Below, piece by piece: positions 3,906-10,451 of a DNA stretch of 31,333 nt. Within the stretch, counting starts at the first letter, position 1. Each line of letters starts with the position of its first letter. A program made the translations under genes and the position numbers. Under the pieces are notes generated by a model that saw nothing but the letters and a program-made list of their open reading frames with translations, was not told where the DNA came from and made no database searches. Source of the DNA: a virus; IMG/VR virus record IMGVR_UViG_3300047550_007048; one strand, 5' to 3'.

Positions 3906-3918
3906 CCGGGATTTATCG
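3906..3918 (-). promoter_or_regulatory. GATAAAT motif (CGATAAATCCCGG), about 54 nt upstream of the 3852 start; overlaps the stop codon of the GT gene
   Basis: Motif family member; here at promoter-like distance rather than start-proximal. Confidence 0.4.
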
Positions 3919-6033
3919 TCCCAAAAGCTCTCGCCTGACGTATATGGTATCCATCTCGTATTCGTGCCCAAGCTTCCTGGCGGATTCCAGCTCGACGAAC
4001 CCATGTGATTCTAGATATGCGTCGATCTCCGGCTTGAGGCTCTGCCCATGGTAATAGGGTTTCACGCCGACCTCGGTCAGTATCGCCTTGACCGTCCGTA
4101 GGCTGTTTTCCGCACCACGCAGTATGTCCAGCTCTGATCCCTGCGCGTCCATCCAAATGATGTCCGGTTCCAGCCCACGTATCTGGCAAATGGTGTCCAT
4201 GCGCGCGGCCGGCACCGTGATGCGCTTTTGATGGTTAAGCTCATGCGGGAACACGCGGGGATCCATCAGCTCGTACTTGCTGGCCATGCCGGTGTTGTTG
4301 CCGACCGCTCGATCCTCGTCCAATGGGAAGAACGAGATCGGACCATCCCTATCGTTCAGGGCAAAATTGTCAATGGTGATGCGAGCACGCAGATCCTCAT
4401 CAAGGCCCTCGAAGTGCTTGATGCAATGGGAGAAATGTTCCGGGGTAGGTTCAAACCCATGTATCCTGGCATTCCTGAACACCCGTGCCATGTTGCGGCT
4501 TTCGTAGCCGTGGGCAGCGCCAACGTCAATCACGGTCCTGACCTCGGAGAAATCCATCAACGGCAACAGATGCAGCAACCTTTCCGCCATCATGTCCATG
4601 CTGAGACCGGTCGGATTGCGAAGAAGATCCGCGTGCTCGGAGTTCATGGCAGGTCCTTCCTTCGCGGGAACGTCGGCCGGTGCCTTGATATCGGACGGGT
4701 CTGGAATCCTTACCACCAACATGAGATCGTCCCAGCGATCCTTGACGTGCCTCAGATCCACGGTCTCGGCATGTTCCTTGAGATGGAAGGGTACCGCCGC
4801 ATGGAGATGTGCCATCCAGCTTGGATCCGGTATGTCCTCGATGACGAACAGCCCTCCGGGCTTGACCCTTGGTAATATGTTTTTCACAGCCCATATCTGC
4901 GTGTCGAGGGTGTGGGGACCGTCGTCTATGAATATGTCCATCTCCGGCATCTGTGCCAGGCTAGCATGCATGTATGCATTTCCAACGGCTAGCATGATCC
5001 CGGGATACTTGGCACAGTTTTTCTCGCAATCGCCCCTCAGCTCGAGGTCGATGCCCAGTATCCGACCTTTCTTGAAATACTCCGCCCACATGATGAGGCT
5101 ACCGCCCTGGTCTATGCCGACCTCGACCAGCTGTAGGGATTTATCACGATACCGTGCCAGCTCCTTCTCGTAAAAATGATCGCAATAGCTGTGGTGGCTG
5201 TTCTTGTCCGTCACCAGGCCCATGGAGGATATGATCTCCGAAAGGCTCGGTTCACCGGGGGAGTGGTTCGTGGTCATTGGTTCGATCCTGTTGGCGGTGT
5301 TTTCCATGTTATCCCATACGTGGCTGTGCTGCTTCCTTCGCTCGGGGTCGTACCACCAGCTGCGATGATCAATGCCCGGTACGTTCCACGGCGTTGCGAA
5401 CTCGTGGCCGGTACCCCATTTGCTTTCCAGATAGGTTCGATTGCTGGATTGGGTCACACCATTGGCCCTGCGATATGACTCGGAGCTGCGTATGGTCCAG
5501 CTACCGTTGTTGCTCTCTCCTATGTCGCTGTTGAGAGGTATCATCCTGACCCCGGCACGCTCCATGCGTATCATGTAATCGAGGTCCTCGCTGTAGATCG
5601 GCCAGATGTTCTCGTCGAAGAGCCCGACCTTGGATACCACCTCCGGGTCAACGACGAAGCAGCTGAAGGCCCCGTTCGGCGCCGTTATGACGGATCCCCG
5701 ATTGGCCATCCAGGCAGCATGGAACTTCATGAGATCGCCCGGAAGGAACAGGGTGTCGTTGTTGGATATCAACCAGTAGGGGCATTCCGGGAAGCTCTTG
5801 ATGATGCTGTTCCATCCCGGGGCCACGCCCATGTTGCGGAACGGTCTCTCGACATAGACGGAATTGATCCAGCGGTTCCGGGTGCCGGTGATCTGCCCTA
5901 TGGCATCCACCACGTCGGGTTCGGAACCGTTTTGTATGATGCACAGCTTGTTGACGGGATGATCGATGCTGTCCACCAACCTCCTGAGCAGGTCTCCTCG
6001 ATTTAGGACCAGCACGCCGAGGCAAGGGATCAT
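3913..6033 (-). CDS. tri-domain glycan-modification enzyme: N-terminal GT2-like glycosyltransferase, central class-I SAM methyltransferase, C-terminal FkbM-family methyltransferase (about 706 aa)
   Basis: N-terminus MIPCLGVLVLNRGDLL...ISNNDTLF is GT-A/DxD-like. Central LVEVGIDQGGSLIMWAEYF...LFVIEDI is a Rossmann MTase. C-terminus VIDVGAAHGYESRN...FEPTPEHF...MDAQGSELDILRGA carries FkbM motifs. The start ATG (6031-6033) overlaps the upstream gene's stop TGA (ATGA coupling). Confidence 0.8.
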   Translation of the reverse strand: MIPCLGVLVLNRGDLLRRLVDSIDHPVNKLCIIQNGSEPDVVDAIGQITGTRNRWINSVYVERPFRNMGVAPGWNSIIKSFPECPYWLISNNDTLFLPGDLMKFHAAWMANRGSVITAPNGAFSCFVVDPEVVSKVGLFDENIWPIYSEDLDYMIRMERAGVRMIPLNSDIGESNNGSWTIRSSESYRRANGVTQSSNRTYLESKWGTGHEFATPWNVPGIDHRSWWYDPERRKQHSHVWDNMENTANRIEPMTTNHSPGEPSLSEIISSMGLVTDKNSHHSYCDHFYEKELARYRDKSLQLVEVGIDQGGSLIMWAEYFKKGRILGIDLELRGDCEKNCAKYPGIMLAVGNAYMHASLAQMPEMDIFIDDGPHTLDTQIWAVKNILPRVKPGGLFVIEDIPDPSWMAHLHAAVPFHLKEHAETVDLRHVKDRWDDLMLVVRIPDPSDIKAPADVPAKEGPAMNSEHADLLRNPTGLSMDMMAERLLHLLPLMDFSEVRTVIDVGAAHGYESRNMARVFRNARIHGFEPTPEHFSHCIKHFEGLDEDLRARITIDNFALNDRDGPISFFPLDEDRAVGNNTGMASKYELMDPRVFPHELNHQKRITVPAARMDTICQIRGLEPDIIWMDAQGSELDILRGAENSLRTVKAILTEVGVKPYYHGQSLKPEIDAYLESHGFVELESARKLGHEYEMDTIYVRRELLGR

Positions 6034-6569
6034 TGCTGCCCTCGCCTGGCCATCACCGTCAACCCGTTGTTGTTGTGCAGGCGATCGACCATCATCCAAT
6101 CGGTGTTGTGGGCAAGGAACTCAACCACGGCTGGCCACAACCCACGGCTGCCATCCTCTCCGACCTCTCCAAAGGTGGTGGTATCGTGCAGCACGATGTA
6201 TTTCCTCACGCTATCGGCATATTTCAGCTCGGCGCTGGCCTGCTGGTAGGTGTGCTTGCTGTCTATGAACAGCAGGTCGGTCTCCTCCAGGGAGCCGATC
6301 TCCAGGGAGCTGCCGATGATGTACCTGGCATCCTTCCCGGCTTCCCTTGCCAGCTCGAAGAGCTTGGAAACCTTCGGATCCTCGACGATGTCATATGATC
6401 GCAGGGCCGCGTCGCTGTTGAGGAAGGCTGATGTTGATGAACCCCACCTGACACCGAACTCGGTAACATGCCGGCATTCCCGGGCCAGCTGGTTCAGCCT
6501 TGGCAGGTGCTCGACGATGTCCGGGGATTCGCGGAGATGCTTCTCGTATTCTTGCTGGAATGGATCCAT
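6030..6569 (-). CDS. class I SAM-dependent methyltransferase (O-methyltransferase-like, about 179 aa)
   Basis: MDPFQQEYEKHL...VTEFGVRWGSSTSAFL...DLLFIDSKHTYQQASAELKY...IVLHDT is a Methyltransf_24-like pattern. GGGGGA SD 5 nt upstream of the ATG. Confidence 0.7.
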   Translation of the reverse strand: MDPFQQEYEKHLRESPDIVEHLPRLNQLARECRHVTEFGVRWGSSTSAFLNSDAALRSYDIVEDPKVSKLFELAREAGKDARYIIGSSLEIGSLEETDLLFIDSKHTYQQASAELKYADSVRKYIVLHDTTTFGEVGEDGSRGLWPAVVEFLAHNTDWMMVDRLHNNNGLTVMARRGQQ

Positions 6570-6580
6570 TGGTTTCCCCC

Positions 6581-9488: not shown

Positions 9489-9503
9489 GACGCGATGTTC
9501 CAA

Positions 9504-9593
9504 TGGCGGAAGGTAACAGAATCGAACTGTCAGCCTTGTTTAGGGGCTGGGACGGTTTTCAAGACCGTGTCCCCACCTTGGAGCCTACCTTCC
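9504..9593 (-). tRNA. tRNA-Ser(TGA), class II, CCA encoded
   Basis: Acceptor GGAAGGT/ACCTTCC, discriminator G. Anticodon arm ACGGT-CTTGAAA-ACCGT. Variable-arm hairpin CAGCC/GGCTG. T-arm CAG-TTCGATT-CTG. Confidence 0.75.
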
Positions 9594-9677
9594 TTGCATG
9601 TGCAGATTATATAGCATTTCACGCCAGTGTCAACGGATGATTTTACCGCAGTTGGTCCAAGGCGTTACAATCAAGCC

Positions 9678-10451
9678 ATGAACTGTTTCATCATATCCCC
9701 GACCCTAAAGTGCGGAAGCACGCTCTTGGAGTGGATGCTTAACCAGCATCCGACGATCGCAGCCAATCCGATCAGGGAGAGCTACGGGATCGGAGAGATG
9801 CTGAACGTGATGGATTGGCTTCCGGAAAACCAACATCTGGTCGAAAGCCCGAAGATAGTTAGGCACGGATTCGTCGATGCGACCAGGAAATGGTACGGGG
9901 AGATCATCAATCCGAATAAACTGGATTTTTCCGGGGCACGCTTCACCGGATTTACCAGCTGCCGCTTCCTCCGATGGATGTTCCCCGATGATCCAATGCT
10001 GATCATCGTCCGGGATCCGGTCGATACCTGGCTAAGCTACAAGAGATGGCATGCCATGCATGGTGCCAGGGACAGGGGGGTACCGTCGGTGTCGGCATGG
10101 TTTTCGGGGACCTATGCCAGGCTCAATCAAAGCCTGGGTAGCGTCAGCAACACCCTGGTGGTGAATTTCGAGGATCTCATCACGGATCATCAGCGGGTGA
10201 TCGACTCATGCTGCGATCACCTCGGCATTGGCAGGTTCTCGGTCGATCTAGCAGGCAACGGTGCCGTTTACGCCAACATGACGGCGTTCCCTGGGGATTC
10301 GCATGATGGCGACGGTTTGATGGTCGGCACGCTGGATAGGACCCGGCATGCTGGTCCTTCGGAGGTTCTCGAGATCATGGAGATCAGGAGGCTGGTCAGA
10401 ACGGCGGACACCGGAGGTGGCATCCTGGCCAGATACCAGGGGAAAGATTGA
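9678..10451 (+). CDS. sulfotransferase-family protein (about 257 aa; alternative GTG start at 9627)
   Basis: MNCFIISPTLKCGSTLLEWML is a 5'-PSB P-loop-like motif. LIIVRDPVDTWLSYKRW is a 3'-PB RDP motif. Confidence 0.65.
   Translation: MNCFIISPTLKCGSTLLEWMLNQHPTIAANPIRESYGIGEMLNVMDWLPENQHLVESPKIVRHGFVDATRKWYGEIINPNKLDFSGARFTGFTSCRFLRWMFPDDPMLIIVRDPVDTWLSYKRWHAMHGARDRGVPSVSAWFSGTYARLNQSLGSVSNTLVVNFEDLITDHQRVIDSCCDHLGIGRFSVDLAGNGAVYANMTAFPGDSHDGDGLMVGTLDRTRHAGPSEVLEIMEIRRLVRTADTGGGILARYQGKD

Follow-up and report, generated by a model that had tools for sequence, protein, structure and literature searches.

The DNA analysed here is a stretch of 31,333 nt (IMG/VR virus record IMGVR_UViG_3300047550_007048; hereafter the window) that belongs to a huge-phage genome of probably more than 300 kb. 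On its minus strand, the window possesses a cassette of three genes (7582 to 3913) encoding a sugar-nucleotide epimerase, a small S-adenosylmethionine (SAM)-dependent methyltransferase and a 706-amino-acid (aa) fusion of a glycosyltransferase (GT) with two different methyltransferase domains. The cassette is conserved in other huge-phage contigs, and homologues of its components are located among capsid and neck genes of other phages or close to collagen genes of other viral contigs. In our estimate, there is a roughly even chance that it represents a cytoplasmic add-and-cap module glycosylating virion proteins with a multiply O-methylated sugar. The cassette consists of the following elements:

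6581-7582, minus strand: epimerase of the short-chain dehydrogenase/reductase (SDR) type, gene 1 of the cassette (333 aa; ATG at 7582, TAA at 6583-6581)
6575-6580, minus strand: GGGGGA Shine-Dalgarno sequence of the small methyltransferase gene, abutting the epimerase stop codon (TAA GGGGGA AACCA ATG)
6030-6569, minus strand: predicted stand-alone class I SAM O-methyltransferase, CmcI/Methyltransf_24-like (179 aa; ATG at 6569-6567, TGA at 6032-6030)
3913-6033, minus strand: tri-domain fusion (706 aa; the ATG at 6033-6031 overlaps the upstream TGA, giving ATGA at 6033-6030)
5284-6033, minus strand: predicted GT-A fold glycosyltransferase domain (fusion aa 1 to ~250)
4831-5238, minus strand: Methyltransf_24 domain, MycE/TylE-like sugar O-methyltransferase (fusion aa 266-401)
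3985-4548, minus strand: FkbM-family methyltransferase domain (fusion aa 496-683)

The cassette thus comprises one epimerase, one glycosyltransferase and three O-methyltransferase units. A first, sequence-only reading had described the operon 7582-3913 as an epimerase, a methyltransferase and a 706-aa fusion of a GT with two methyltransferases, and these domain calls hold in Pfam, NCBIfam, PHROG and structure matches. The translational coupling that it proposed was confirmed as well: both the ATGA overlap at the fusion start and the GGGGGA sequence, 5 bases before the small methyltransferase ATG, are exact in the sequence. None of the module proteins contains a hydrophobic segment (19-residue Kyte-Doolittle mean below 1.3 at maximum). 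The enzymes are therefore predicted to be soluble and to act where SAM and nucleoside diphosphate (NDP)-sugars are available.

The epimerase matches the Pfam family Epimerase (E=2.7e-43) and aligns end to end with the UDP-glucose 4-epimerase TmGalE of Thermotoga (4zrm, 1.5e-46); it also matches the UDP-glucuronic acid (GlcA) 4-epimerase 6zl6 (1.1e-37). Its NAD-binding motif G7-V-A-G-F-L-G13 (GxxGxxG) as well as the SSM serine and Y-G-I-A-K triad align with those of TmGalE and BcUGAepi. Dehydratases have TDEVYG and UXS has TSEVYG at the position of the serine motif, the acidic pair being typical of 4,6-dehydratases and decarboxylases, whereas the motif read off the window protein is CSSMARYG, without the dehydratase Asp-Glu pair. 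Because of the TmGalE alignment, the GxxGxxG and Ser...YxxxK motifs and the presence of SSMARYG in place of the acidic pair, the protein is a predicted NDP-sugar 4-epimerase-type extended SDR. As all its NCBIfam equivalog scores are far under the cut-offs, it is not assignable to one specific enzyme; the substrates of its closest solved relatives are UDP-glucose/N-acetylglucosamine (GlcNAc), UDP-GlcA and UDP-GlcNAc. The epimerase is 77-92% identical to its counterparts in huge-phage relatives and 55-57% identical to those in small siphophages, and orthologues with 59-64% identity are widespread in bacteria. In one Pelagibacteraceae genome, the orthologue adjoins a GT2 gene and ABC-transporter genes; this setting, found in a single genome, was not decisive for the substrate.

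The stand-alone methyltransferase scored below the cut-off of Pfam Methyltransf_24 (21.5 vs 26.3 bits), and no significant match in the Protein Data Bank (PDB) was obtained with its single sequence or with either of two profiles. However, 975 homologues were detected, many of them with PF13578 or PF04989, and its AlphaFold model (predicted local distance difference test, pLDDT, 97) has a class I methyltransferase fold. The top PDB match of this model in Foldseek was the mycobacterial sugar 1-O-methyltransferase MeT1 (6g7d, 5e-9), an enzyme of methylmannose polysaccharide metabolism, followed by cation-dependent O-methyltransferases of the caffeoyl-CoA O-methyltransferase/COMT-like type (5e-9 to 1e-6). 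E37/G39, D60, D103/H106 and H128/D129 are invariant. The protein is therefore a predicted class I SAM-dependent O-methyltransferase, and the modelled fold is unambiguous. Its hhalign comparison with the fusion was not significant (E=0.084); nonetheless, the motifs of the two proteins are in register.

For the N-terminal part of the fusion, no Pfam GT family, PF00535 included, was matched at E≤0.01. PHROG 29879 ("galactosyl transferase") was matched at 3.8e-34, and the AlphaFold model of this part (pLDDT 85, predicted template modelling score 0.84) shows a GT-A fold. Foldseek retrieved GalNAc-T2, the chondroitin polymerase K4CP, GlfT2 and TarP from the PDB with probability 1.0 (1e-8 to 1e-6; ~2e-6 for TarP, a teichoic-acid GlcNAc transferase), and uncultured-phage GT2-like proteins (template modelling score up to 0.82) as well as Megaviridae proteins from the viral BFVD library. 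As relatives within the same clade match PF00535 at 1e-6 to 2e-11 and the model has the GT-A fold, "GT2-like GT-A" appears to be a fair label for this domain. The DxD position after strand beta-4 reads N91-N92-D93; D93, its sole acidic residue, is invariant in 18 sequences. The ED catalytic-base motif is represented by Y147-S-E149-D150-L-D-Y-M-I-R156, in which E149, D150 and R156 are invariant in all 15 full-length homologues (in the 18-sequence set, only R156 is fully so). A pattern scan of 185,579 bacterial and archaeal species genomes, which detects close relatives only, found no relative of the fusion or of its GT domain, so the GT clade looks virus-restricted.

The two methyltransferase domains were identified directly. 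PF13578 (Methyltransf_24) matches fusion aa 303-401 with 37.4 bits (cut-off 26.3), and PHROG 21658 is matched at 4e-21. With a profile of 15 homologues, this domain retrieved MycE (3ssm, 1.4e-14), TylE (8ia9, 2.5e-11) and CmcI (1e-5) from the PDB. E304-x-G306...G310-G311, D329, D370-D371-G-P-H374 and E399-D400 are invariant among the 15 homologues, and we infer that the conserved acidic and histidine residues are putative metal ligands. The FkbM domain matches PF05050 on aa 503-680 (72.5 bits, cut-off 22.7), TIGR01444 (81.4 bits, cut-off 37.7) and PHROG 8156. The resulting GT-Methyltransf_24-FkbM fusion is an enzyme without earlier description.

Megablast of positions 3000-10500 against the INPHARED phages retrieved nothing. 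In metagenomes, the fusion has 15 full-length homologue clusters (55-82% identical), and the cassette is present on huge-phage contigs of up to 187, 303 and 453 kb, the last of which is found in IMG/VR as IMGVR_UViG_3300032315_001715. The closest relative is a sister phage (L030), which has ~78% nucleotide identity and is collinear with the window from 2013 to ~22300. In these contigs and in the sister phage, the gene order epimerase, methyltransferase, fusion is constant, and the stop and start codons overlap or abut; the recurrence of this tight packing in related contigs shows that the arrangement is not due to chance. An HNH_3 endonuclease gene is located just upstream of the epimerase gene in L001, L003 (the 303-kb contig) and L030, and is not present in the window.

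Furthermore, the domains of the fusion are found split and rejoined in other contigs. In L004, one protein of 436 aa carries a GT and a Methyltransf_24 domain and another of 716 aa carries FkbM, Methyltransf_24 and GT34 domains, both within a larger sugar cluster that also includes two additional SDRs, a further FkbM gene and a transketolase that is split. (Matches of ~435 aa had at first been considered to be methyltransferase-methyltransferase proteins throughout; this was ruled out by tblastn, as at least one of them, the 436-aa protein of L004, is GT-Methyltransf_24.) Another contig has a 252-aa gene, a candidate GT gene by its position, directly before a Methyltransf_24-FkbM protein of 447 aa. 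L011 encodes a 977-aa TPR-GT17-Methyltransf_24-GT2 protein, and L008 a 772-aa GT17-GT2 protein followed by an epimerase and a GT17-Methyltransf_24 protein. Such fission and fusion in relatives implies that GT, Methyltransf_24 and FkbM domains cooperate in one pathway, and suggests that the three domains of the window fusion work together.

Several homologues of the cassette components are located in head-neck gene blocks. Pontimonas phage phiPsal1 has the gene order major capsid protein, GT1, SAM methyltransferase, GT2 and neck, and its GT2 is the closest cultured-phage homologue of the fusion GT domain (37% identical). Six metagenomic contigs of phiPsal1-related siphophages have the order portal, protease, major capsid protein, GT1, GT2, epimerase, neck and tail tube; here the GT2 is 37-40% identical to the GT domain and the epimerase 55-57% identical to that of the window. 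Two cassette components thus move as a pair within the head-neck block of small siphophages. The homologue of Synechococcus phage S-CBS4 is located in a run of genes for the portal, an unnamed product, a GT, a "galactosyl transferase" and a methyltransferase, and the protease and major head protein genes lie ~3 kb beyond this run, past an HNH endonuclease gene and a few small genes. (Note that, in blastp, the small methyltransferases of phiPsal1 and S-CBS4 have no similarity to that of the window.) In mycobacteriophage Omega, the major head protein gp15 is followed by the GT gp16 and the methyltransferase gp17, the latter being the top cultured-phage match of the Methyltransf_24 domain (36% identical).

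Other homologues are found near genes for collagen-like proteins. In L011, genes for a 2-oxoglutarate-Fe(II) oxygenase (PF13640), a GH130-like protein, GT17-Methyltransf_24-GT2 and GT17-DUF6445 precede the gene for a 1528-aa collagen protein (Pfam Collagen 2.7e-93). In L009, the GT2 gene is preceded, at a distance of ~5.7 kb, by the gene for a 1181-aa collagen protein and is followed by GT17-Methyltransf_24; the intervening DNA contains a 1549-aa gene and a GH130-like gene. In L003, a fibre-like 752-aa protein with (GPT)n repeats is encoded ~660 bp downstream of the fusion, past a 158-aa open reading frame (ORF). The association of collagen genes with the GT clade is suggestive. The window itself encodes such a protein:

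30593-31333, plus strand: Thr-rich collagen-like protein (GPTGxTG), candidate acceptor, continuing beyond the window (Pfam Collagen 5.4e-35)

As an observation in its own right, the regions 5474-17051 of L011 and 108-12934 of L009 (viral contigs of 31-33 kb) appear to represent a collagen hydroxylation/glycosylation cluster, with multi-domain GT17/Methyltransf_24/GT2 and DUF6445 proteins and the collagens of 1181 and 1528 aa.

In the add-and-cap module as we propose it, the epimerase would convert a host UDP-hexose, UDP-N-acetylhexosamine or UDP-hexuronate to its C4 epimer, and the GT-A domain of the fusion would then move the epimerised sugar onto an acceptor. The MycE/TylE-like and FkbM domains, together with the stand-alone CmcI/MeT1-like enzyme, would methylate several hydroxyls of the transferred sugar, giving a hydrophobic terminal residue that could not be extended. 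The likeliest acceptors would be the capsid or neck proteins of the phage itself and/or Thr-rich collagen-like fibres, e.g., the protein encoded from 30593 onward. What the data show is the identity and fold of the domains, their catalytic motifs, the conserved tight packing of the cassette, the splitting and rejoining of domains in relatives and the location of homologues near structural genes; beyond this, we infer which sugar is used, where it is methylated, in which order the reactions take place and what accepts the sugar.

The proposal of the sequence-only reading that the glycan decorates the capsid or fibres, including the collagen-like protein, is thus consistent with homologues located between major capsid and neck genes or beside collagen genes and with the collagen gene of the window itself; this is guilt by association and not proof. 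A number of observations weigh against it. The 31-kb window contains no capsid, portal or tail gene, and in the huge-phage relatives no structural gene was found in the Pfam annotation within 10 kb of the cassette, where most neighbour genes are unannotated. Instead, the cassette is surrounded by tRNA genes, homing endonuclease genes, a SIR2 gene and a gene for a major-vault-protein-like protein, and its region therefore looks accessory rather than like a morphogenesis block. The collagen-like gene of the window is 23 kb away from the cassette and on the other strand, and the collagen association, seen in 4 of ~19 lineages, may reflect the background frequency of such genes. In addition, virion glycosylation is itself putative in phiPsal1, S-CBS4 and Omega, and the GT-A fold is silent on the acceptor, as TarP (acting on wall teichoic acid) and DNA-modifying phage GT-A enzymes are equally close in fold.

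Besides the cassette and the collagen-like gene, four further elements have to be considered:

3073-3858, minus strand: downstream gene of unassigned function, possibly co-transcribed (261 aa, basic)
7986-8013, minus strand: sigma-70-like promoter candidate upstream of the cassette (TTGCGA-16-TATAAT; a 10/12 consensus match only)
9678-10451, plus strand: predicted sulfotransferase 1 (257 aa; opposite strand to the cassette)
24237-24833, minus strand: sulfotransferase-like protein 2 (198 aa; ~17 kb from the cassette)

The 261-aa product has no Pfam, NCBIfam or PHROG match. Homologues of its gene are located directly 3' of the fusion in L001 and L002 (45% identical) and in L030 (74% identical), and it is not found at this position in L003. 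Despite the synteny in three relatives, the protein is therefore only a possible pathway member, as neither a fold nor a family could be recognised for it and L003 lacks it. As for the promoter candidate, the total of such matches in the region was not above that of shuffled controls.

Both sulfotransferase-family genes noted in the sequence-only reading were borne out, with PAPS (3'-phosphoadenosine 5'-phosphosulfate)-binding motifs in each, and it is credible that both encode PAPS-type sulfotransferases. Sulfotransferase 1 matches Sulfotransfer_3 (PF13469, E=9.2e-11, 42.8 bits vs a cut-off of 27) and carries PTLKCGST as the 5'-phosphosulfate-binding loop and RDPVDTWLS as the 3'-phosphate-binding motif. 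It is rare, with just 3 clusters among 5.8 billion. It is syntenic in L030 with 65% aa identity (82-92% for the flanking genes on the cassette side), and it is not found in L001-L003, more distant relatives which retain the cassette. Its gene has a normal GC content and adjoins a low-GC gene for a GIY-YIG endonuclease; both genes are kept in L030, and we considered that they might form one mobile cassette.

Sulfotransferase-like protein 2 scores below the threshold for Stf0 (19.3 vs 22 bits) and carries the motifs SSKRTGST and RRRDIVEQITS. Its family consists of 341 representative clusters, in which R16, G18, R98, Q104 and S107 are invariant; 13 of 40 sampled members match Sulfotransfer_3, and the family profile matches Stf0 (1tex) at 1e-3 over a region spanning exactly the PAPS motifs. 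A 46%-identical relative adjoins a GT34/GT17/multi-methyltransferase/nucleotidyltransferase cluster, and a 41%-identical one is located among radical SAM, PP-binding, desaturase and hydroxylase genes. As a side observation, a RuBisCO large-subunit gene (1-869 of contig L034) edges such a GT34/GT17/methyltransferase/nucleotidyltransferase cluster, beside a gene similar to that of sulfotransferase 2.

The inclusion of the two genes in the glycan-tailoring module, as originally suggested, was not sustained. Sulfotransferase 1 is on the opposite strand, belongs to a narrow sub-lineage and is absent from distant carriers of the cassette, and sulfotransferase 2 is ~17 kb away, with its closest relatives in one glycan cluster and one unrelated radical-SAM/lipid-like cluster. 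They are considered lineage-specific extras; sulfation of the glycan is possible, but proximity is all that links them to the cassette. A more elaborate version of the proposal would be a sulfated, per-methylated glycoprotein coat, in which a GT-methyltransferase-methyltransferase "assembly line" and its helper would place up to three O-methyl groups on the glycan of collagen-like fibres or capsid, the sulfotransferases would add sulfate in the sub-lineage of the window, and the virus-restricted GT clade would be shared with Megaviridae. We regard this as a long shot; if true, such a coat would be the first described for a bacteriophage.

Other acceptors have to be weighed against virion proteins. 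The methylated terminal sugar could be attached to O-antigen, capsule, S-layer glycan or teichoic acid at the cytoplasmic face of the host, which would alter receptors and prevent superinfection while a long infection cycle proceeds; the module would then act in the manner of WsaE and WbdD, bacterial enzymes that combine GT and methyltransferase functions and terminate glycan chains. Such a role has been proposed by Iyer et al. for GT/O-methyltransferase clusters of jumbo cyanophages (PMC7824862), and it fits the location of the cassette in an accessory rather than structural region, the similarity of the GT model to TarP, which is phage-encoded, and the existence of the bacterial epimerase orthologues, in one Pelagibacteraceae genome near GT2 and ABC-transporter genes. 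However, the surroundings of the cassette in relatives yielded no priming transferase, flippase, polymerase or Gtr-type membrane partner. The closest GT homologues from cultured phages and small phages are part of the head-neck block instead of being near integrases, so the structural-gene setting of homologues would be left without an explanation, and the GT clade looks virus-restricted in the species-genome scan, so far as close relatives are concerned. We therefore consider remodelling of the host envelope rather unlikely. The sequence-only reading had also offered DNA hypermodification after base hydroxylation; in such a pathway, the GT-A domain would glycosylate hydroxymethylated phage bases with the sugar provided by the epimerase. 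Indeed, phage GT-A enzymes with R...DDD...EDY/F motifs, structurally near TarP, glycosylate 5-hydroxymethylcytosine, and some of their clusters pair a GT with an epimerase (bioRxiv 10.1101/2023.12.21.572611); the GT domain of the fusion has R63, NND93 and E149-D150-L-D-Y besides its TarP match. Nevertheless, no thymidylate-synthase-like hydroxymethylase, TET/5mYOX-type oxygenase or C5-methyltransferase was found in the scanned window ORFs (31 kb of probably more than 300 kb) or in the Pfam-annotated ~10-kb flanks of the relatives, although such pathways are usually clustered, and O-methylated sugars on DNA are not mentioned in the same paper (bioRxiv 10.1101/2023.12.21.572611). The complete phiPsal1 genome as annotated has an N6 DNA methylase only and nothing making hydroxymethyl bases. 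Furthermore, all three methyltransferase units resemble O-methyltransferases of sugars and small molecules (MycE, TylE, MeT1, FkbM). This proposal is accordingly not supported and seems very improbable.

The same resemblance could point to tailoring of a small molecule or lipid: a metabolite, lipid or ribosomal peptide produced by other phage genes would be glycosylated and methylated, with the sulfotransferases acting in the same pathway. The Methyltransf_24 domain has as its closest solved relatives MycE and TylE, enzymes that methylate the sugars of macrolides, the window has a radical SAM/SPASM gene (16222-17439), relatives have genes for an Asp/Arg hydroxylase, a Methyltransf_24 protein and two radical SAM enzymes ~4-9 kb upstream of the cassette, and the radical SAM/PP-binding surroundings of the 41%-identical sulfotransferase 2 relative are of this kind. 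No scaffold genes (polyketide synthase, non-ribosomal peptide synthetase or precursor peptide) were identified beside the cassette, however, comparison of the window with L001 shows no synteny between the cassette and the radical SAM genes, and the structural-gene setting of the homologues would be left unexplained. Such tailoring is thus a poor candidate, and decoration of the virion is the best-supported reading.

Virus-encoded glycan synthesis with O-methyl capping is known from several systems, within which the cassette is a new architecture. In the chlorovirus PBCV-1, the terminal rhamnose of the capsid glycan is built by A064R, a GT-GT-methyltransferase fusion that also methylates it at O-2; the methyl group at O-3 is subsequently introduced by A061L (PMC9614988). 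Like this pair, the cassette combines a viral soluble GT and a SAM methyltransferase in one chain with a stand-alone helper methyltransferase of ~200 aa. However, A064R possesses two rhamnosyltransferase domains and one methyltransferase domain instead of the GT-Methyltransf_24-FkbM arrangement, the top 50 Foldseek PDB matches of the GT domain did not include any A064R-D1 structure, and the host of PBCV-1 is an alga, whereas that of the cassette is a bacterium. According to a passage in PMC11600133 citing Freeman et al. 2023, cluster O mycobacteriophages possess GT and O-methyltransferase genes by which capsid and tail-tube proteins are modified. The cassette resembles such virion glycosylation of the Che8/Corndog type, in which phage GTs act together with an O-methyltransferase, and the Methyltransf_24 domain has homologues (28-36% identical) in mycobacteriophages Omega, Wildcat and Cosmo. 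In mycobacteriophages the genes are separate, and in Omega they are inside the head block, whereas the cassette, located in an accessory region with many tRNA genes, has fused enzymes and adds an epimerase of its own as well as two more methyltransferase units. The phiPsal1-like insert shares adjacent homologues of the GT domain and epimerase in the same orientation, but it has no fusion and no FkbM domain and contains an extra GT1/GT4-type enzyme; its function is likewise predicted.

Methyltransferases fused to GT or other domains are also known from bacteria: in WsaE of Geobacillus and WbdD of E. coli O9a, they cap the growing glycan with O-methyl groups at the cytoplasmic face. These enzymes act on undecaprenyl-linked polymers and are encoded in full polysaccharide clusters, whereas no such cluster is present at the cassette. 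Thr-rich collagen repeats of the GPT type carrying O-glycans that end in an O-methylated unusual sugar are known from BclA of Bacillus anthracis (anthrose) and from the collagen/fibrils of Mimivirus. The collagen-like protein of the window has GPTGxTG repeats, and collagen genes lie near GT-clade homologues in L011, L009 and L003; the enzymes differ, and the link is one of gene neighbourhood in other viruses.

The region around the cassette is rich in RNA genes. In 2942-27546, ARAGORN predicted 42 tRNA genes (38 Rfam matches). All are on the minus strand, with protein genes between them, and CCA is encoded in many. The arrangement is indicative of a huge-phage tRNA island, which may be transcribed in long punctuated units. 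Directly upstream of a tRNA-Ser gene (9504-9593), the minus strand has a TTGACA-16-TATAAT sequence (9606-9633), a 12/12 match to the sigma-70 consensus, which suggests that transcription of the tRNA island depends on the host sigma-70. The tRNA at 22707-22789 (minus strand) has the anticodon UCC (Gly) and scores 53.7 bits with the tRNA-Sec model (gathering threshold 47); its acceptor stem (~9 bp), D-stem (6 bp, with a loop of 4 nt) and T-stem (4 bp) give it the shape of tRNA-Sec or an "allo-tRNA" rather than of a canonical tRNA-Gly. Another tRNA (23861-23941, minus strand; Tyr according to ARAGORN) reaches 34 bits with the tRNA-Sec model. The space between the promoter-like sequence (8013-7986) and the start of the epimerase gene contains, at 7765-7938 (minus strand), two aberrant tRNA-like elements that end in CCA and were both missed by ARAGORN. 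The first has UUU in its anticodon loop, a D-stem of 6 bp and a T-loop that is not canonical (tRNA-Sec model 23.5 bits, E=0.03); in the second, the T-arm is canonical and the acceptor stem has 8 bp. This region is ~79% conserved in L030, and the elements may be processing signals or unusual or degenerate tRNAs.

Downstream of the cassette, 1-2505 (minus strand) encodes an 834-aa protein with a major-vault-protein Shoulder domain (8.4e-20) and a Vault_3 repeat (4e-7); an 838-aa vault-protein homologue is encoded upstream of the cassette in another huge-phage contig, and "major vault protein" was not mentioned among the top results of a small keyword literature search. Homing-endonuclease-like genes are located at 8154-8987 (plus strand), 22831-23694 and 21907-22542 (both minus strand). 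Two of them are GIY-YIG/NUMOD3 and one is DUF559, and two of the three lie in low-GC islands (GC ~0.42-0.45 vs 0.56 for the window). The remaining annotated genes, all on the minus strand, encode SIR2 (11392-12204, 3.5e-24), a dual-specificity phosphatase (13976-14527), the radical SAM/SPASM enzyme (16222-17439), a fragment-sized low-affinity iron permease (25067-25390, 2e-33), an AAA_28 kinase-like protein (28371-28910) and an RNase T/ExoX-like exonuclease (29272-30084). In L001, the hydroxylase, Methyltransf_24 and two radical SAM genes mentioned above are found between SIR2 and the cassette.

Virion glycosylation by virus genes is established in chloroviruses, mimiviruses and some mycobacteriophages, and has barely been explored in environmental and huge phages. 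The combination of epimerase, CmcI-like methyltransferase and GT-Methyltransf_24-FkbM fusion provides a conserved and easily recognised marker for such studies. If the proposed model is true, compact multi-functional enzymes for O-methylated sugars would be available, and many uncultured phages would carry methyl-capped glycans on their particles, with consequences for adsorption and stability, for resistance to proteases and for the way in which grazers or immune systems recognise them.

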